IMG/VR virus record: IMGVR_UViG_3300021255_001366
Location: 32,001 to 96,000 of that record
Strand: one strand, 5' to 3'
Length of the DNA stretch: 64,000 nucleotides
Source of the DNA: a virus
Taxonomy: Duplodnaviria; Caudoviricetes
The position numbers and the translations under genes are program-made. The notes under the pieces were generated by a model that was given only the letters and a program-made list of their open reading frames with translations, was not told where the DNA came from and did no database searches. This document shows positions 26,359 through 64,000 of the stretch, piece after piece; positions within the stretch are counted from its first letter, which is position 1, and each line of letters opens with the position of its first letter.

Positions 26359-26965
26359 CGTTTGTATTAACATTGTTCGCAACACAATGCTTTTATTATA
26401 TTAATTATATGTGATTAATTAAAAAACGTTCCATATTGTCATACTCCCAATACGGAACGCAAAAAGGTATTCTTTCTCAGGAGTATGCTGAGTAGAATAC
26501 TCTTTGTCGTATTTTTTCATAATAATATAATAAAACTCATAGTTTCCCATGAGACTAGACTATTTCTTCATCCTCTCTACAAAATAGAGTAGGAGTATAC
26601 CTTTTCGATTTAAGGGGATTTCACCCACGCCATTTGCGATTGCGCCCTACGATTATTGTTATGGATATTCAGGATTTCCACCCTTATTCTCTTGTCCATA
26701 ACTCGACGTGAATCTAGTCGTTGAACCTTTACCCTCGACTCAAGCACCGGATGGTCTCCGGAATACGTTAGGGTACTTGGCTGCAAGAACTACCATTTGC
26801 CTTCGCCAGTACTTAGGTTTTTGACCATATACCATCCTTACGTTGTTTCTACTTTCGTACCATCATAGCGTGATTTCTCCGCTATTGTGGTGTAAGGCTT
26901 TAGGTTTTACCTGCAATTAAATATATTCCATATGCACATTACTGTACATAAAGACATAAAAGTTT
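26359..26965 (-). mobile_element. Group I intron 1 of the tape measure gene (607 nt, no ORF, IA-like)
   Basis: P TAATTGCAGG (26919-26910), Q CTTGCAGCCAAG (26787-26776), R GGTTCAACGACTAG (26727-26714), S AAGAAATAGTC (26568-26558), P9 with GAAA loop, terminal G; splicing restores FKTLSARIRG. Confidence 0.9.
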
Positions 26966-29900
26966 GTCTTGAAAACAGTTCCTACTTGTTCAGGATTTTG
27001 TACAACAGTGTTGGCGGCTGTGACGAGCGCTACAGATTCCTCAAGTGAAGTGTTTGCAGCATTTAAAGAAGCAGCTGAACGCTGTAATGCCTCACCAATT
27101 CCAGCACTATCAATTGCATAATTATTCGCAACTTCATTGAATACGTCTACAATATGCTCTGCTTGATCTGCTTGCATTTGATAACCTTGAAGCGTTGAAA
27201 TCAAACTTTCGTTTGCAGTTCCAATATCAATACCGTCTCCAACATTTTTATACAAAAGTGCAACACGAGCCAGCTCTTTAGCATCAGGAACAGAATACCC
27301 AAGTCTAGACCAATCTGCTGTTGCGCTTATTGTGTCAGAAATAGTAGCACCAAGATCCTTTGCGGTATTTGCATAAGCTTCAAAATCATTTTGTATTTGA
27401 CTAAGAGTTTGCCCTGATACCTTGGATAATTCGACCATCTGTTTGTTGATATCTGCAACATATGTATACCCTTGGCGTACAACTCTAATAACATCATAAA
27501 AACTATTAAATGTAGTAAGAGTCGCAATCATGGACTTTGCACGTTGCTTAATCATGTTGAATACAGACGATCCAGTCTGACCAGCTTTATATGCATTTGA
27601 CTGGATAGTTTGAATCTGGAGGATAATCCCATCCAATTCCTCTCTTGTTAAAGTCGCACTACTACGCAGCTTCTCAGAGATTTCGTCAAACTGAGTTCCA
27701 TATGTACTTTCTGCGGCTGAGTTTTGTCTACGCCATTTTTGAAGATCCTTTTCTATACGAAGCTGTTCCTTGTAGCGTTTATCTTCAGCAGCTTCTAGTT
27801 TTTTCTGGTCATTAACGTTCTTTTGATTGTTTTTAGCGACAATTTTGCCCAGCTCATTTTGTGCACGTTCATTTTCTTTTATTACATCAGTAGACTTTTC
27901 ATACTCGACATTAAGCTGACGCATAGATTGTAATTGTTCTTCGTACATTTTTGCACGACTAACAGCATCTCGTTCTAATTCTTGTTCTCCAGATAACTGA
28001 TACTTCTTCACTTCAATCATTGCGTTATTGTATTGCTTTAAAGTATCAACATATTTTTTCAATGCTTGCTTGTCTTGTTTTTCTGAAGAATCAGATTGCG
28101 CCAATCCACCATTTGATTTATCAAGCTTACGTGCCTCAATAACGGCTATTTCTTGCAAATTCTTTTTGCGCATCTCTAATAATGTATTAACTTGCGCCTC
28201 TGCGTTTGCATTTTCATCTATAGCCTTGAGTTCTTTTGTTTTTTCTTGATATACAGCTAAAGCAGTTTTCTTTTGTGCTTCTAGTTCTGTTATTTCAGCA
28301 GTATTTTTTACAGGATCTAGTTTCGCAATTTGCTTTCGAATATTAAGAACATCTTGGTATGCCGTCTTTTGCTCAGATAACAGATTATTAACATTAGATA
28401 CTTGAAGACCTTCCTCTGCTTTCTTCTTTGCTTCAGAATTCTGCCTCATTTGCTTATACAGATTCTGACGTTCTTTCTCAATTCTTAATTTTTCTCTTTC
28501 AGCCGCAAGGTCGGTTGATTTATAATCATCAGATTCAGCTACGCTTGTGTAGGCAACCCCGCCCTTTTTATCATATTTGATATTTAATCGTTGTGTTTGT
28601 TTTACTAATTTTCCACTCGAATCTTCAACCATGCGCTCTGCTTTAATTAACGCTTGAGCTAAATCATCGTGAGAATCATAGAATCTTTCAATACTAGCAA
28701 TATATCCATCAACTTCATATGAACTTATTTCTGCTATAATAGCATTTTCTATTTCTCTTGTTCGTATTTTGGCTTGTTCCGGATCATACTTGTCATCATA
28801 CGGGACTTTAGTTTTGCTTTGTTTTTTCTTTGCTGATTCAACCTTAGAAGATTGCATATCAGAAACAATGTTGTTCAATGGAGTTTTAAGGTCTTTGTAC
28901 CAATTTCCATATTCTCCATTATTCAACTTTGTTGCTTCTTCTTGTACTTCTTTAGCAGTAAGAGTTCCAGCGTTTACCAGTTCACGAACGGCATCCTCAA
29001 CTTCACCTTTATGCTTTTTAATACCTTTCGCATAACCCTCGCCCCACATTTCTCCAAGCGCCTCGGCTACCCTAGAAGGAGAGCGTGAGTCTTGTGCTTC
29101 GGCAGTACCTTCGTTTGCTGCATTAGCTAAATCAGCACCAGCTTGTTTGGCATTTGGTTGTTCGGATTCCATTCCTTCGACATATGATTTTCCTTGCTTT
29201 TTACCGTTAGATGAATCTGGAGTTTCATTGGATATTTGAGGAAGGTCAGGAAGTTCAACTTTATATTTATTAAATAATTCCTTTATATAACTTTCAACTG
29301 TATCCTGTATGTTGTTAAAAGCTTTAACAAAATCATCATCATCTAAACTACCTATTTCTCCTCTGACATTAGTCATTGCTTGCTTAATAAAGTCTTCTTC
29401 AGAGATTTGTTTATCCAAAGCTTCGCGAATAGTATAATCCATTGCTTCAGCAACAGCATCATAATACTTTCCTGTTATTTCAAAATACTGGCGTTCTGCA
29501 TCTGATGACATAGAAAACGGTGAAAAATTTGAACTGTCTACTTCAGAACCAATAAGTTTAGAGTAAGAATCGGCAAGAAATGTTGAAAGATAGTGTGCGG
29601 ATTGACTTTTCATCATCATTGAATTATGATTTAAGCCATAACTACCAGTTGACCTTATCATAAACTTCTCGAACTTTAAAACAGAAGAAACTTGTTCATA
29701 AGTAGAATCAATATGTTCTTTTAAAAACAATAATATTTTTTTAAACTCTTCAATTTTATTATTGATTGCTTCATCATTATTAACATTTAATTCTCTAAAT
29801 TTACCAAAATCATTCAGTATTTTAATAAGATTATCAATATTATTTTGCTCATTTTTAAGAGTATCAATTATATTAGTGTCAACTTTACCACCTTTAGACG

Positions 29901-50147: not shown

Positions 50148-51938
50148 TTACTTACTAAATATTCCACCGTATCTAGACTTAGTTCCGGTAGACTTCTTGC
50201 TTGGATTACCAAACAGTTTTATACCTATCATAGGCTTCTGCTCATTTTCAGCCGATGAAAACTCAATCTTGTGAGACTTCGCAAAATCAAGCAACAGACT
50301 ATCAAGCTTTTCAGTAATCTCTTCCTTGCTCATAGCAAAGTAAGACTCACGCTTAGACAATTCCTTGAACGCATCAGTATCACGAATCTGATCATAATCA
50401 GTATTAGCAAATACCTCAAGTTTCTCAGGCTCTGCCTCGTACTGCTGAAGCTTCTCTTCAATAGAAGAGTAGTTAGCCTTCATCTGCTCAAGTTGCTTCT
50501 TCTCATCAGCAGTAGCAAAGAGCATAAAAGTTTCAACCCTATCGCCTACAAGAGAATAAACATCTTTCTTTACAGCATAAGACTGACGATAATGCTTGTT
50601 AGCCCACCAATCATGGAACTCAACAATCTTAGAATCCTCAATGACATCGCAGTCAAACCATGCTCCATCAAGTTCGCCATATGTATCATTAACAAGCGTA
50701 GTAAGAGCATTAAGCTTTTCCTTAAGGCTTACAGAAAACTCTTTCTTCTCACCGTTAACATTTACGGTATAGTCAATAGAGTAGTAGTTGACATCCTCCG
50801 GGTCTTCAGCATCAGCACCATTATCCTCAGCAGACTGAGTATCAGTAACTTCAGGCTCTGTCGGCTCTTCGGGTTCGTCCTCAGAATCGTCATCATCTTT
50901 CTGATCGTCATCCTTGTTATCATCATCTTGCTGATCGTCGGAATCGTTATCGTCTTGCTGCTGATCATCATCGTCATCGGACTCATCGTCCTTATCTATG
51001 AGAATTTCAGAACCATCATCTTCAGACTTCTTCTTTTTCGGAGTCTCTTCAAAATCAGCTGTTGCATCCTGTAAAGGAGTATCTTCGGTAGATTCTTCAG
51101 ATGTGATTTCTTCTTCCTCAAAATCTTTCTTCATCCTATTTTCCTCCTTTCTTTCAGAATTGGATATATTGAAACTATCTAACTTTTTGTTTAACTCAGA
51201 TAGTAGTTCAATTAATTGTTTATCATTAGACAAAACACTATTTTGTTCAGCGCTAAAAGATACTATGTCTGCACGACTACCAATCATACCTTCTTGAATT
51301 TCATCGCCATTTTTTCGTTTGCCTAACAACGTTGAACCAGCAACATAAAAACTTTTTAAATCAAGATAATTTTCTTTGGCGTTATATGCAAGTTCATCAA
51401 TTGATAATTCACAACTGTTTTTCGTACCATTTTTTTCTCGTATAATGTCAGATGCTTTTGTGTATTCTTCTGCAATATATCCATATGCGCATACATAATC
51501 CTTATCTAAAGCATCATCGTGTTCCCAAAATGGTTTTTCTGAAGAAAACGATCCAACTTGTTTTTCAATATAATTAATCTCATGTTCTCCGTTTTCATTT
51601 TCAACTATTTCCATTTCGTGCGATTCAAAATCCCATGTCCCATCATCTAACTGATGTATTGCTGCCATAATAGGTCTGTCAGAAATTGTCGCAGAAGCCT
51701 TTACCGCTGCATCATGAGATACGTAACTTCTATTACGATTAAGCCCTTCATGAAATAATCTAAATTTAAGTTTTAACATACCTCTGTGATTATCATCAGT
51801 AGAATTCTCGATTTCAAAAGTGGTAGGAACTTGAACGGCTAATTTATAACCAGATTCTTTGGAACTAAATCTTGCAAAATTATTTTCCCTACAAAACTGT
51901 ACCAAATCATCAATGGTAAGTAATCTTTTTTTTACCAT
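50148..51938 (-). CDS. Prohead protease/scaffold protein
   Basis: HEGLNRNRSY, SCEL and GSTLLG motifs; acidic linker; helical C-terminus. Confidence 0.75.
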   Translation of the reverse strand: MVKKRLLTIDDLVQFCRENNFARFSSKESGYKLAVQVPTTFEIENSTDDNHRGMLKLKFRLFHEGLNRNRSYVSHDAAVKASATISDRPIMAAIHQLDDGTWDFESHEMEIVENENGEHEINYIEKQVGSFSSEKPFWEHDDALDKDYVCAYGYIAEEYTKASDIIREKNGTKNSCELSIDELAYNAKENYLDLKSFYVAGSTLLGKRKNGDEIQEGMIGSRADIVSFSAEQNSVLSNDKQLIELLSELNKKLDSFNISNSERKEENRMKKDFEEEEITSEESTEDTPLQDATADFEETPKKKKSEDDGSEILIDKDDESDDDDDQQQDDNDSDDQQDDDNKDDDQKDDDDSEDEPEEPTEPEVTDTQSAEDNGADAEDPEDVNYYSIDYTVNVNGEKKEFSVSLKEKLNALTTLVNDTYGELDGAWFDCDVIEDSKIVEFHDWWANKHYRQSYAVKKDVYSLVGDRVETFMLFATADEKKQLEQMKANYSSIEEKLQQYEAEPEKLEVFANTDYDQIRDTDAFKELSKRESYFAMSKEEITEKLDSLLLDFAKSHKIEFSSAENEQKPMIGIKLFGNPSKKSTGTKSRYGGIFSK

Positions 51939-51954
51939 TTTTATTCCTTTCTTG

Positions 51955-52863
51955 TTATATGTATTTCCATATATAACCATTAATAATACAACTTCCTTTT
52001 AAAATAGCATTTCCTATAGTTTCACTATTTAACTCTTCTTTGACGCTTTTTAATGACGGAAAAACTTTAATCAAATTATTACATAAATCAAACTGTCCAA
52101 CAGATTTTCCTCTCTTTTTATAGTCAACAGGATATTTATCAAAACAATCTCCTTTATATCTATAAACAAAACCATCAATATTATATTTATATCCGCCACA
52201 ACAATCTCGTATTTTTCTACGCATTTTTTTATCATCAGTAATTTTATTTATACATTCAAAAGATTGTAAGAAATTCCCATTTAAATCATACATATCAACA
52301 CCTTTATTTTTAAAAATCATATCTGTCTTGCATTCTTCGCCAGCATACGACCACAAATATCCTGCAACAGAACCATTTCTATCTCCCCTACAACAATGAC
52401 CAATCGATGCCTTATCAGCTCCTACAGATTGAGCTGCAAGAGTAATAGATTCAAATTCTTTTATAAATATACCATCCAACGAATATTGCCACACTGGAAT
52501 ACCTTTGTAACCATAATCATCTCCTCCGGCAGAAATATTATATCCATACATTGAATTATTTGACTTATATTTTTTTATATAGTAGCGTTCAAATTTTTTT
52601 AACATCATTACCAAATGGTTTAAGTCAACATCATTAAGTTCCTTCAATACCGAACACGAAAAATGTTCAGTACCAAGATCTCCAATTATTAAATCAAATG
52701 GAGTAACGTCTGAAACTTTAGTTTTTTTATGAGCTTTTAAATGTTGTTGAAATCTTTTCTGTATAGTCTGCCTTGTTTGTCCTATATAAACCTTATTGTT
52801 AATATCATTACAAATAATATATATATAACCTTCCCACAAGCCAGTCTCTTGATTATATGCCAT
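51955..52863 (-). CDS. Free-standing GIY-YIG homing endonuclease with NUMOD1 repeats
   Basis: GYIYIICN..NNKVYIGQT and GYN...GG motifs; three V.(Q/M)(Y/F).L....I..F.S repeats. Confidence 0.9.
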   Translation of the reverse strand: MAYNQETGLWEGYIYIICNDINNKVYIGQTRQTIQKRFQQHLKAHKKTKVSDVTPFDLIIGDLGTEHFSCSVLKELNDVDLNHLVMMLKKFERYYIKKYKSNNSMYGYNISAGGDDYGYKGIPVWQYSLDGIFIKEFESITLAAQSVGADKASIGHCCRGDRNGSVAGYLWSYAGEECKTDMIFKNKGVDMYDLNGNFLQSFECINKITDDKKMRRKIRDCCGGYKYNIDGFVYRYKGDCFDKYPVDYKKRGKSVGQFDLCNNLIKVFPSLKSVKEELNSETIGNAILKGSCIINGYIWKYI

Positions 52864-52956
52864 AATTAATCTCTCCTTTCTTAAACAAAAAAAGAAGAGC
52901 GGGAATACAGCCCACCCAAAAGAGCAAAATCGAAAAACAGTCGAAAGCTCTAAAAA

Positions 52957-53178
52957 TTAATTCTTTATATACTGAACACCATAAAAGTCATTAAACAACA
53001 ATTTATTTGTGGTCGTATACTTTACTTTTTTCTTTTCAAAAAACGTCTTATTAATCTTTAAACGCTCCTCGTCATTTAGAAAATACCAGCACTTACCATC
53101 TTGACCAACGACGCTAAAGCCTTCGTCTTTAAGCAACATAGCAGTACCAAGATCATCTGTTAATATGAATTTATCCAT
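52957..53178 (-). CDS. Small hypothetical protein
   Basis: AAGGA RBS; MDKFILTDD...LLKDEGF...YFLND. Confidence 0.65.
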   Translation of the reverse strand: MDKFILTDDLGTAMLLKDEGFSVVGQDGKCWYFLNDEERLKINKTFFEKKKVKYTTTNKLLFNDFYGVQYIKN

Positions 53179-53199
53179 GTCATCATCCTTTTCTTCATA

Positions 53200-53860
53200 T
53201 AAAAGTCCCGTAGCCACATGCATATGACTACGGGCAATTTGTCGGGACACACCCGACGGACAATCTAAAATTCCATCCGCCAATACCCAAGAGCGAAGAG
53301 TAGTTTGAGTACATAACTCAGGTACAAACATTCGCAAACCGACCTTTTATATTGCGGTAATCGGTCTCCGCATGGGTTCTGTTTGGTTTTAAATTAACGG
53401 CTTCGTCAGCCAAAAGTTGTATGGTTATCCGATATTGCAGTGTTTTACAGATTCGTCATCTAACCACACGAACACCTCTCGAAACGTGCCTCCTCGGAAT
53501 AGGGCTACACCAGTACCATCACGCACCTACGTGTTTAGGTCTTTTCGTTGACCACTTATATTGGTTTAATGTCTCAATACCGACAATAAAAACCCACCGT
53601 TGTAGCATAGGTCGTGGAACACCTACCGTACCATCCTTGGGTATAACCCTCACACTTTCCTTGCAATCGGTAAATGACTATAAAGCTTCTCACTTGAATT
53701 TTAAGGTGGACGAGATTTCCCACCAGTAGAGTTATTGCGCATTAAGGTTACTTTGCTTACCTCGTTACTGTCGGTTGAGGTTGCCGACTCCTATATCAAA
53801 CCACTGATTAACCTGACTCAGTAGTCGAATCCTATAGTGGAAGCGACGGCTTCCACATAA
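53200..53860 (-). ncRNA. Candidate large structured ncRNA
   Basis: About 650 nt with no credible gene; many hairpins, several 9-10 bp long-range complementarities, terminator-like hairpin at the 3' end. Confidence 0.6.
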
Positions 53861-53926
53861 TAATATATAACCCGTCACAGCATTGCCATGACGGGCGCAT
53901 CTCATTCGTCTTAACAAACGAGCAGC

Positions 53927-55537
53927 TTATCTATTTCGTGAACGTTCACCTTCCGGCGAAAGTTCTTCAGCTGGCTTTTCCGGGGCGCCTTCTCCAACTT
54001 CTCCTTTTTCACCATCATTACTTGTAGTATATGAGCTTTGAAGAGGGTATTGCATTAAGTTTTGTAAGCCTAACACTTGTGTTTCAAATAATAGACTTGC
54101 CATAGTTTCCTTTTCTGAGAAACCAAGAAGAGTGCCATAAGCCAATCTATAAGAATAACTATATTGGTTTGATTCTAATAACGCATTTCTATAATCATCC
54201 TTAGTAAAAATTGTAACTGGCATTAAATGAATAGGACAGTAGTTAGAAACATTCAGCGCTAATTGCAAATTAATCCAAGCATTAATCTGAGGCAATACAC
54301 TACTTAACACATAAGCAGATTCTGATTTTAAAGCCGCATTAATTAATGCAGAGTTGTTAACCAACTTATTTCCGTTTAACAATGCTCCAACACCACCAGC
54401 CGAACTCAAGATTTGTTGTTGCGAATTCTCAACTCGATTTACATCGTCAGATACATTATCAGAAAAATCGATTGTCTTAAGTTCATCTCCGGGAATAACA
54501 GCGCTTGATACGCCATCTGGTATTGCGTTGTCGGCTGCTATTTTAAAATAATCTATAGCCAAATCAGGTGTGATTTCAAACTCATCTGGACTCTTTGCAG
54601 AATTCATGACCTTAAGCGGCATATAAATCATTCTATAAAAACTGAGTTTATCTGCACTGGACTGCACATCTGCCAAATCATTAAGATTGGCAAGTCCGAG
54701 TAACATCGGAAGCAGTGGGGGAATAATAGCGTCCATTAAATCAGTTCGAAACTTAACCACAAACGAATACTCTGCTGGCACATGAACATACTTAACGCCA
54801 GTTTTATCGTATTCGTCCCACATAGAAGATAAGGGTTCGCCTAAATATTCTATTAACGCTTGGCGTTGCGCCGATTTCCACTTGCTCATATCGAGTGCCA
54901 TGCCGTAACAAGATGAATCATTAACCGTATAAATACTATCGATAATAGCCTCATTAGGATCAATTCGCCACATAAACGAACCAGTGTCATCATGGAAAAA
55001 CAAGTTAAATGAAACGTCCTCAATCCACATATTAACAAGAGGGGTGTTCATAATATTCTCCAAACCAACCTTATCCATAAAGTCTATGGTAGACTGAAAC
55101 TGTTTCAACGCCTTAGTAGCATCCATTCCCTTAACAAATGAATACGGTGGCTCTATGCTACGACAATCAAGGCAATACATATCTGCATATGCGTATATCA
55201 TCTTTTGATATATTGGAGACCTATAAAAAAGATATCTACTAGCGTTAATCAAATTCTTTGAATTTGCATAAATATTACCAGTAAGATACCCTTTGATAGT
55301 GTTTTTATCTGTGCTTGTCAAAGAAAGGGTAGCGGCATTTTTAGTAATATCCCTAATAGTCTTCATTACCTTTTCTTCTTTAGCATTCGCATAATGTTTC
55401 ATTTGTTTTTCTTCTTCAAGTTTAAATGTTTCTCGAATTGCAGCTACAGATTGATTCGGTTTTCCTACATTGCCATTTACTGTAGCTACCTTTTCTTTTG
55501 AGACGCTACTTGCGTCAATATCTTTTTTCTCCGCCAT
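53927..55537 (-). CDS. Portal protein
   Basis: 536 aa directly after the terminase; PLQSSYT...GAP C-terminus typical of SPbeta-like portals. Confidence 0.8.
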   Translation of the reverse strand: MAEKKDIDASSVSKEKVATVNGNVGKPNQSVAAIRETFKLEEEKQMKHYANAKEEKVMKTIRDITKNAATLSLTSTDKNTIKGYLTGNIYANSKNLINASRYLFYRSPIYQKMIYAYADMYCLDCRSIEPPYSFVKGMDATKALKQFQSTIDFMDKVGLENIMNTPLVNMWIEDVSFNLFFHDDTGSFMWRIDPNEAIIDSIYTVNDSSCYGMALDMSKWKSAQRQALIEYLGEPLSSMWDEYDKTGVKYVHVPAEYSFVVKFRTDLMDAIIPPLLPMLLGLANLNDLADVQSSADKLSFYRMIYMPLKVMNSAKSPDEFEITPDLAIDYFKIAADNAIPDGVSSAVIPGDELKTIDFSDNVSDDVNRVENSQQQILSSAGGVGALLNGNKLVNNSALINAALKSESAYVLSSVLPQINAWINLQLALNVSNYCPIHLMPVTIFTKDDYRNALLESNQYSYSYRLAYGTLLGFSEKETMASLLFETQVLGLQNLMQYPLQSSYTTSNDGEKGEVGEGAPEKPAEELSPEGERSRNR

Positions 55538-62409: not shown

Positions 62410-64000
62410 CTAGGTGTTCCCTTTTTTGAAGCACTGCAACAAACATTTAGGGTTTAAATCGTATAACGTCTTGAGTAAAATCGCTCTGTTTTGACTCAAT
62501 CGTGTTTGCAACTGTTCACGGTTCTGCTTAATACTTGGAGTAATAGCAAAGGCTCTATTGATCAGCCATGACATTAATCCAACATAATTCTTCGATAACG
62601 TTATTCCTCTTAGTGCATGAATCAAATCGTCATAGTCGGAGCGAAGTAGTAGATACTCATCGTTGTTATGCTCCTTATTCATGTCGTAAATCATCAGTTC
62701 TTTAATAAACGCCTCGATGAAAGCTTCAACCTTCTTCGATGTCTTACGAGGTGTTTCATTTGTGTGGTTAATAAAAAACTCCTTAATATCTATAATGTCA
62801 CGATTGGACAGTTGTTTGTTCTTCATTGCATATACGGAATTCATAGGACACACAATGTTAGGATTGACCTTGCTCCGTTTACTAGGATTTACCCCGGCAA
62901 AGAATGCTGGATAACCAAGAGACTTAATGTTCATTTCTTGTTTGATACGTTGAATCTCGGAGTGGATGTCAACATCAAAACTCCTTTTCGCATTGTCAAT
63001 AGCACATTGAGCCAGAACTGCCAAAATGGCAACGTGATCTTCAAAACTTCTTCCGAAATCATTGTATGTATAACTCAATCCTATCTGCGCAACATTAGAC
63101 GATTCACCTATATCTAATTGTGCGGCGGATAATTTATTGTCTACGATGGAGAAGTCTTTCAAAGTATTGTCATAAACATTCTTCTCCTTTGGAATATTAT
63201 TAACAATCGTCTTATAATTGTTATAACAATGCTTTGCATGTTCAACTATTTCTATTTGATTGGTTACGTAAAAACTGTCAGAATCCTGATCTGATCCATT
63301 GTTAAGATCCTGTACATCCGTACCAATCATGTTAACTGCTAATATTTGTTTCCCGAAGTTAAAATACTTATCCCAGTAAGTATGATATTTGTTATGCATA
63401 TACCCTAATGAATTACGACTATTAAATGGACTTCTGAACTCCGCTAAATACTCTCCATCATCAAATCTTGCCGTCCAACACTGTATGCATCCATCCTCGT
63501 GTTCAAACGTCGGATCTTTCAGAGCATCTTCGCCAACTGCATGCATTAACATGCCGTAAGGATTACCAACAATAACAAGATTGTCGCCGTTCTGTAAGAT
63601 GTGACCTTGTTTCACATCTGCAACATAAGCGGCTATCTTGCGGTTGCGTCGTTCCACGAAGTAATCACATTTCACAAACTCCGGATCTTGTTCGCACAAT
63701 GCAAGCAGCACATCGTTGTCATTACTGAAGTTACTTGTCCTTCGCAAGAAGTCAAAATACACACCATCATCTGTCTTGAGCTGATAAATATAATCCTTGG
63801 TAGGAGAGAGTACATCCTCGATTGTATTGATATCCAAAGCGTTCACCATCTGATAACTCATTCGTTGCTTTGAACCATACTTACTTTCATGAGCAGTTTT
63901 AACAATACCGAAGTATGCGCCATTATCCCAAACCTTCTGACACCAGTATTCATAGGCAACGTCAAACTTTACCCACTTGATAGCGTTCTCTGTTGTTATC
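62410..64000 (-). CDS. YonO-like single-subunit RNA polymerase, 5' end outside the window
   Basis: Frame open to the window end; FRSP and NGSDQDSD (DxDxD) motifs; SPbeta yonO-yonN(HU) synteny. Confidence 0.82.
   Translation of the reverse strand, partial: ITTENAIKWVKFDVAYEYWCQKVWDNGAYFGIVKTAHESKYGSKQRMSYQMVNALDINTIEDVLSPTKDYIYQLKTDDGVYFDFLRRTSNFSNDNDVLLALCEQDPEFVKCDYFVERRNRKIAAYVADVKQGHILQNGDNLVIVGNPYGMLMHAVGEDALKDPTFEHEDGCIQCWTARFDDGEYLAEFRSPFNSRNSLGYMHNKYHTYWDKYFNFGKQILAVNMIGTDVQDLNNGSDQDSDSFYVTNQIEIVEHAKHCYNNYKTIVNNIPKEKNVYDNTLKDFSIVDNKLSAAQLDIGESSNVAQIGLSYTYNDFGRSFEDHVAILAVLAQCAIDNAKRSFDVDIHSEIQRIKQEMNIKSLGYPAFFAGVNPSKRSKVNPNIVCPMNSVYAMKNKQLSNRDIIDIKEFFINHTNETPRKTSKKVEAFIEAFIKELMIYDMNKEHNNDEYLLLRSDYDDLIHALRGITLSKNYVGLMSWLINRAFAITPSIKQNREQLQTRLSQNRAILLKTLYDLNPKCLLQCFKKGNT

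Follow-up and report, generated by a model that had tools for sequence, protein, structure and literature searches.

The locus described here raises the question of what a stretch of 748 nt without genes is doing directly behind the portal gene of a tailed rumen phage. The stretch lies in a window of 64,000 nt (bases 32001-96000) taken from an IMG/VR phage record that is 123,919 bp long and has direct terminal repeats; every gene around the stretch is carried by the minus strand (Table 1). A sequence-only reading of the window had proposed that the gap contains an ornate structured RNA of about 650 nt, a member of the ROOL/GOLLD class or of a new one, with crossing long-range helices and a possible role in head assembly or packaging.

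Homologous elements were sought in IMG/VR, JGI metagenomes and GTDB genomes, by way of the portal and of sequence patterns, and were found right behind the portal gene in eleven related phage loci. The loci compared are designated L003/L016, L023, L017, L018, L014/L020, G001 (L019/L027/L022), L021/L024, G406 (L046/L047), L049 and L066. In every close relative whose flank is present, the portal gene precedes the element and the orientation is unchanged. One of these loci (L021/L024, also L040) is the prophage contig NZ_FUXA01000016.1 of Eubacterium ruminantium ATCC 17233, in which the core module A described below lies immediately behind the portal gene; this prophage points to rumen Lachnospiraceae as hosts of the phage clade.

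The portal protein of the window aligns over residues 40-535 to positions 12-494 of the 501 in the phrog_2739 profile. Its C-terminus, GERSRN[KRQ] followed by the stop, is common to all close relatives, and its distant relatives are the portals of SPbeta-like, Tsamsa-like and Lactococcus 949-like siphophages. Homologues of the small ORF on the other side of the gap (60-62 aa) come after the element in L003 and directly after the portal gene in distant relatives. The homing endonuclease gene beyond it is missing at the corresponding place in L003, L017, L018 and L014. An ORF that runs off the end of the window has 27% identity over 247 aa to the PMBT24 protein named in Table 1 and 49% to a human-gut phage contig, and is consistent with a YonO-type late polymerase.

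Table 1. Features of the gap and its surroundings. Coordinates refer to the window unless a related locus is named; helices are given as 5' arm/3' arm.
Feature	Position	Strand	Remarks
ORF running off window end	62410-63999	-	resembles annotated RNA-dependent RNA polymerase of Enterocloster phage PMBT24
Portal gene	53927-55537	-	536 aa, complete; phrog_2739, E 8e-61
Gene-free gap	53179-53926	-	748 nt, between portal gene and small ORF
Terminator-like hairpin just past portal stop	53870-53896	-	12-bp stem, UAUAUAUUAU tail
Variable leader	53797-53869	-	two perfect local hairpins: 53837-53856 (GUGGAAGC/GCUUCCAC) and about 53799-53826
Core module A	53589-53796	-	multi-helix domain; covariation in nine homologues
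Core A, H1	53788-53784/53774-53770	-	
Core A, H2	53769-53761/53731-53725	-	
Core A, H5	53724-53719/53710-53705	-	
Core A, H6	53676-53669/53660-53653	-	
Core A, H9	53626-53621/53612-53607	-	
Core A, pseudoknot	53618-53614/53597-53593	-	H9 loop UCCAC with GUGGG; covariation
Motif B	53525-53587	-	5' GUCGG; P1 hairpin (loop AGACNUUAAAC, near-invariant) and P2 hairpin follow, then CUAAA(A)
Module C	53420-53524	-	accessory; 96% identical to G001 (L027) over 135 nt
Module D	53275-53384	-	H-type pseudoknot (S1 53372-53368/53357-53353; S2 53365-53361/53342-53338) and long hairpin
Tail	53207-53274	-	hairpin GUCGGG/CCCGAC 53241-53257; terminator-like hairpin 53207-53234 with tail ACUUUUAUAU
Small conserved ORF	52957-53178	-	73 aa, downstream neighbour; ATG at 53178 behind AAGGAUGAUGAC
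GIY-YIG/NUMOD1 homing endonuclease gene	51955-52863	-	between small ORF and 610-aa head-region gene
610-aa protein gene	50148-51980	-	phrog_3313; head-region gene
Neighbourhood of motif B in L052	9404-9424	-	10 nt behind another phrog_2739 portal gene; contig otherwise unrelated
Neighbourhood of motif B in L071	3412-3523	-	directly behind bona fide drum RNA (73 bits)
Neighbourhood of motif B in L059	2038-2085	+	about 80 nt before DUF3800-XI RNA (52.8 bits)
Drum-like/abiF-like motifs in three relatives	L027 2227-2335, 2430-2468; L026 2318-2421, 2569-2605; L033 2496-2601		

Much of what had been described within the gap is indeed there. No credible gene lies between the portal stop (53927) and the start of the small ORF (53178); the two hairpins said to bound the stretch (53871-53895 and 53207-53234) are both present, each with a 12-bp stem followed by a U/A-rich tail that makes it terminator-like on the minus strand; and all four of the local stems listed are found where they had been placed. 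The gap has a GC content of 0.43-0.46, compared to 0.27-0.38 in its flanks, and folding of the whole stretch against shuffled sequences gives z-scores of -3.5 in the sense direction (minus strand) and -2.4 antisense. This low folding energy stems from the non-conserved leader and tail, not from the conserved modules. The leader together with the terminator hairpin (53797-53926) has a z-score of -6.3 and the tail (53179-53274) one of -4.2, whereas modules A, B+C and D range from +0.3 to -1.0 and are not unusually stable. The leader sequence is not common to the relatives, which carry other leaders, and the tail is specific to the window, the relatives having different 3' extensions and terminators. 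The terminator-like hairpin past the portal stop is not conserved either: L021 lacks it, and core A begins there 3 nt past the stop.

The long-range architecture did not survive comparison. Three long-range pairs had been proposed, and their complementarity in the window is perfect (10/10, 10/10 and 9/9), but this is at chance level, as 54 complementary 9-mers at least 100 nt apart were observed against a shuffle mean of 37 and maximum of 73 (no enrichment), and the pairs are not kept in relatives. The 5' arm of pair 1 (53805-53796 with 53308-53299) falls in the non-conserved leader. Pair 2 (53644-53635 with 53292-53283) has uncompensated mismatches in relatives, and its 5' arm persists in L021 and L066, both of which are without module D. 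Pair 3 (53597-53589 with 53380-53372; GUGGGUUUU/AGAACCCAU) fails in relatives, which have GUGGAUUAU as the 5' arm but leave the partner unchanged. The pseudoknot implied by the crossing of pairs 1 and 2 is not conserved, the true pseudoknots being local, within core A and module D. The three helices and their crossing were rejected on this comparative evidence.

Rfam 15 was scanned at the gathering score, and positions 52800-54100 were then scanned at E<=10 with permissive filters. The proposed membership of the ROOL/GOLLD class found no support, as neither model matches in the gap at E<=10; neither ROOL (RF03087) nor GOLLD (RF01998) was found in the rest of the genome, and ROOL was not found in the largest relative. 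Models of OLE, RNase P, introns and phi29-type pRNA have no match in the gap, and no Rfam family reaches E<=1 there except for a meaningless snoRNA alignment. Elsewhere in the genome the only Rfam matches are tRNAs and one group I intron (RF00028, window positions 26536-26975, minus strand, 54 bits against a gathering score of 50, full model length). A self-splicing intron in the gap was rejected, since the scan that detects this intron gives no intron-model match there and the flanking genes are intact: the portal is complete as far as its profile goes, and the following ORF has its own start. For a conserved structured region, lack of an Rfam match points to undescribed RNA families. Relative to Rfam, modules A and B would be new, though either may be among the 10,006 viral candidate RNAs that have been published.

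Conservation of the element exceeds that of the essential gene beside it. Core A of the window matches that of L003 at 85% identity, against 71% for the portal genes of the two at the nucleotide level (portal identities of 71-72% overall), and module D is 93-96% identical even to loci whose portal genes fail to align. The codon phase of variable columns (20/17/21) shows no periodicity, and indels are of 1, 2, 31 and 32 nt. Matches by tblastn fall in several frames at once because they reflect nucleotide identity alone. A coding reading was rejected on these grounds, there being neither a conserved frame nor periodicity, and the combination of better conservation than the portal gene with no codon periodicity implies that the region is non-coding and under purifying selection. 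The same data make it highly improbable that the gap is not RNA at all, but a decayed gene (e.g., an old homing endonuclease) or a DNA site for recombination, packaging or replication. Such an origin would fit the GIY-YIG homing endonuclease gene 300 nt away and the fact that the region is an insertion relative to distant relatives (phages with portals only 33% identical have no gap, and the small ORF begins 4 nt past the portal gene); in addition to the conservation and the lack of a frame, it is opposed by compensatory changes and strand-specific G-U pairs.

A blastn search with the element against 50,697 annotated phage records gave no match, and a scan with a core-A pattern matched only two metagenome contigs and two genome contigs. 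Of the two genome matches, one lies in the E. ruminantium prophage and one, probably due to chance, in a Kapabacteria MAG. Among 401 Lachnospiraceae genomes core A is present in one, that of E. ruminantium itself, on which the search was centred, the remaining matches being chance matches of 24-30 nt.

Core module A was analysed in an alignment of nine sequences, including two divergent ones (L066 and L047), from which a structure was derived with RNAalifold. Evaluated on this same alignment, the structure has 45 predicted pairs with 95% of cells paired, and 17 pairs show changes on both sides, compared to 4.5 in shuffles (reached in 0 of 500 shuffles); controls in which the structure was slid along the alignment drop to 32-50% paired. 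The alignments for A and D are small (7-10 sequences), and the covariation in them leans on a few divergent sequences (L003, L047 and L066). Helix H1 changes from GUCGG/CCGAC to GCUGG/CCAGC in relatives, and H5 from GGUGGG/UCCACC to GCCGAG/CUCGG. The H9 loop pairs with the downstream GUGG as CCAC/GUGG, as CCUC/GAGG (L014, L066) or as CAAC/GUUG (L057, L074, L060), and this covariation argues for a local pseudoknot in core A. An alternative helix, CCCA/UGGG (53641-53638 with 53596-53593), has one compensatory change, in the window itself; its 3' arm covaries better with the H9 loop, and the two pairings are mutually exclusive. Many pairs are G-U on the minus strand and would be A-C on the other, which identifies the minus strand as the RNA strand. 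The search for homologues and covariation that had been recommended at the outset yielded compensatory changes in excess of shuffled and slid controls, which, with the conservation and the lack of a coding signal, mark the region as structured non-coding RNA in the generic sense.

A shortened form of core A is fused to motif B and about 190 nt of further non-coding sequence in L051, L056, L057, L060, L074 and L076. The stretch concerned extends from about 100 nt ahead of motif B to 250 nt beyond it. Its neighbours are a gene for an HU-like DNA-binding protein on one side and a tRNA gene on the other, and the phages, from metagenome 3300045988, form a different group.

Motif B recurs in numerous unrelated phages. 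The pattern GTCGGNATNGAGACNTTAAAC is present in 38 IMG/VR contigs, where an estimated three or so chance matches are expected. Hairpins P1 and P2 show 89% pairing over 26 distinct copies, and 6 of 9 pairs have changes on both sides, a score reached by 0 of 500 shuffles. The search pattern fixed the letters GUCGG and GAGAC, whose conservation is therefore partly by construction. A covariance model built for the motif (R1) gives 68.9 bits for the window's B, the sole copy in the 124-kb genome. The 7 nt preceding GUCGG are about 90% A/U. Copies of B are found 4-10 nt behind stop codons of portal (L052), exonuclease (L059) and HU-like (L068) genes, and also in 5' UTRs. From B to the start codon of a small gene downstream the distance is about 55-90 nt (about 80-115 nt counted from the start of B); in L053 and L058, B lies between tRNAs. 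No Pfam family was found to be shared among the genes downstream of B, which differ between phages. B-like sites (one mismatch allowed) occur in 3 of 401 Clostridia genomes, and none were obtained with a reversed control pattern. In one Clostridia genome (L083/L084, G658:C25:50900-50952) there are two B-like copies 32 nt apart, with one mismatch each.

A known RNA with the layout of B is GP20-b (RF03003), which lies upstream of a phage structural gene and is a candidate for regulation in cis (PMC10690425). Both have a 5' GGUC/GUCGG, a 5-bp hairpin with the loop G.C.U(U)AAA, a second hairpin GGUN...NACC and then CUAAAA. The best B copy (L067) aligns to the GP20-b model from end to end with its conserved letters in agreement, but scores only 18.5 bits (E 1.6; threshold 36.2), and the window's own B has no match at E<=10. 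Like GP20-b, B is placed in front of phage structural genes in the window and in L052, head genes in these cases; many other copies are in other contexts. In contrast to GP20-b, B has no fixed downstream gene family, and it is also found between tRNAs. A link of B to GP20 or scaffold genes was rejected on the lack of a common Pfam family.

Module C follows B in L049/L066 and L047, and is absent from L003, L017, L018, L014 and L021. Module D, whose pseudoknot stems in the window are UGCGG/CCGCA and ACCGA/UCGGU, is 93-96% identical in L017, L018, L014, G001 and L046; in L003 both stems have been rebuilt and are fully compensated (CGUGGA/UCCAUG and GAGG/CCUC).

Across the relatives the element measures 564, 748, 774, 1179, 1418, 1522 and about 1950 nt, with modules in varying combinations. 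L021 has A and none of B, C and D; a 130-nt insert separates A from B in L003 and L014; G001 contains additional hairpin repeats, an internal terminator and further units; and the order in G406 is leader-B-C-A'-...-D. The largest relative (L027) carries, at about 780-910 (element positions 120-250), two tandem hairpin units of about 50 nt upstream of core A, each of the form GACGAGUGACGG...CUCGUCGG followed by an A-rich run and UGACCG. No covariation was detected between different modules, and this genome yielded no further copy of a module, whichever relative the module was taken from. Since modules are gained, lost and reordered among relatives and the long-range helices are not conserved, the comparison argues that small RNA modules, each folding by itself and exchangeable, are strung together in the gap, rather than one fixed ornate fold. 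The ornate RNA of about 650 nt can thus be retained as a conserved, structured, non-coding region of the minus strand, but not as a single fold.

This bears directly on the possibility of one large RNA of the ROOL/GOLLD kind, or of a new class, with a global fold, perhaps forming multimers, and a role in head assembly or packaging. The setting is suggestive, with about 600-650 nt of raised GC between two terminator-like hairpins in a phage, conserved helices and pseudoknots, and a position beside the portal gene that is fixed in all close relatives and is the sole hint of a role in the head. The gap resembles ROOL and GOLLD in being a conserved structured non-coding RNA of several hundred nt from rumen or gut Firmicutes phages; these RNAs are often beside tRNA genes, as are the distant relatives of modules A and B. 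There are differences: the ROOL model, of about 580 nt with six multistem junctions as well as three pseudoknots, is not matched by the gap, nor are GOLLD and pRNA at E<=10; the conserved unit here is a module of 60-210 nt that is reordered or lost, L021 retaining A alone; and the element sits within a virion operon behind the portal gene. Moreover, the shortened A-B unit occupies quite different places in other phages (HU-like gene to tRNA), the proposed long-range pairs occur at chance level and are not kept in relatives, and no covariation joins one module to another. We regard such a single RNA as improbable.

The content of the longer relatives suggests another reading, in which the modules are accessory, trans-acting RNAs ("RNA morons"), stand-alone and terminator-bounded, possibly serving as anti-defence decoys; some would be orphan copies of bacterial toxin- or defence-adjacent RNAs, with which the phage would neutralise those systems. 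In the homologous gap of relatives, drum-like scores of 24-38 bits were obtained (gathering score 43), and in the gaps of G001, L018 and L014 there are drum-like motifs scoring 33-38 bits (E 3e-4 to 5e-3) and abiF-like ones scoring 27-32 bits, all below threshold. Behind each comes a terminator-like hairpin, and the neighbourhood contains no gene for a partner protein. In L003 an abiF motif above the gathering score (44.4 vs 37 bits) is present at 52-88, with the portal gene about 5 kb downstream of it. Particular neighbouring proteins go with the drum, DUF3800 and skipping-rope RNAs (PMC5737381). RNAs of the drum/abiF/DUF3800 type are compact, highly conserved and followed by terminators, and occur either in the gap of the longer relatives or beside B, which is directly behind a true drum RNA in L071 and before a DUF3800-XI RNA in L059; they differ in that bacterial copies accompany specific protein genes, which are missing here. 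Quick turnover of module content and several internal terminator-like hairpins also fit with accessory RNAs. On the other side, the window has no match to drum (RF02958), abiF (RF03085) or DUF3800 even at E<=10; the modules are not preceded by any convincing promoter of the sigma-70 type (weak sites number 6, vs 3.3 +/- 1.7 in shuffles); a late-operon position is unusual for counter-defence genes; and the rarity of A (1 of 401 Lachnospiraceae genomes) and of B-like sites (3 of 401 Clostridia genomes) means that no bacterial protein partner is evident. We therefore consider accessory RNAs of this kind a minority possibility, though the least unlikely of the alternatives.

The reading that we put forward, with about even confidence, is that the gap is an array of co-transcribed intercistronic RNA modules in a late operon, in which B would act as a unit of punctuation for processing or 5' stabilisation. 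The 37 late genes of SPbeta form one operon, along which the YonO polymerase moves with little pausing (PMC5467207), and the putative YonO-type polymerase ORF of the present phage lies upstream of the gap on the same strand. The element of L021 abuts both flanking genes, beginning behind the portal stop and ending in a terminator-like hairpin next to the ribosome-binding site of the following gene, so that there is no room for a promoter; together with YonO-type late transcription in SPbeta, this suggests that the region is transcribed through. That the polymerase of the present phage would ignore intrinsic terminators is extrapolated from SPbeta. The region would be read from the minus strand within the long late (virion) operon, as an intercistronic spacer. 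Cleavage would occur in the A/U run before B, leaving a protected 5' end or a protein-binding tag, and B would separate the low-copy terminase/portal message from the high-copy message of the head genes, while A, C and D might be released as stable RNA pieces. The proposed punctuation role is based on the start of B, which is always GUCGG after an A/U-rich run, and on its places in other phages, close behind stop codons, within 5' UTRs and between tRNAs. Against this stand the genes downstream of B, which, unlike the target of a gene-specific cis-regulator, are not the same from phage to phage; the fact that a spacer needed only for insulation requires no 200-nt modules with near-invariant loops; and the fast turnover of modules, which would suit an accessory locus better than it would a housekeeping signal.

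Small folded RNAs within polycistronic phage transcripts, as proposed here, include stable RNAs from the tRNA clusters of phages, such as T4 species 1 and 2 (rnaC/rnaD), and leader RNAs that act in cis, such as HK022 put. The put RNAs are two-hairpin structures of about 65-70 nt, like B, and act on the host RNA polymerase downstream of early promoters. B differs in occurring in many contexts, and probably lies in a transcript made by a phage polymerase.

A broader version, which we rate as unlikely, would make B a general RNA punctuation tag across unrelated phages that frees cargo modules, some of them decoys, and would make the gap a late-expressed counter-defence island. If so, B would mark cut sites in long phage transcripts and cap the new 5' ends; the cargo would be A, C and D in the present phage and the drum-like and abiF-like RNAs in its relatives, acting as decoys for RNA-guarded toxin or defence systems.

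Large gene-free structured stretches in phages are usually likened to ROOL or GOLLD and then left unexplained; in the present case the conserved units are small, shuffled modules. A, C and D would constitute three new RNA families, and a cultured host is available for the first of them, as the prophage of E. ruminantium ATCC 17233 carries core A. Motif B, being present in at least 38 viral contigs, is a short, testable element, and the partitioning of long phage transcripts could find its explanation there. If B is a processing or protein-binding tag, many of the "ornate RNA" candidates of phages would need to be re-read as arrays.
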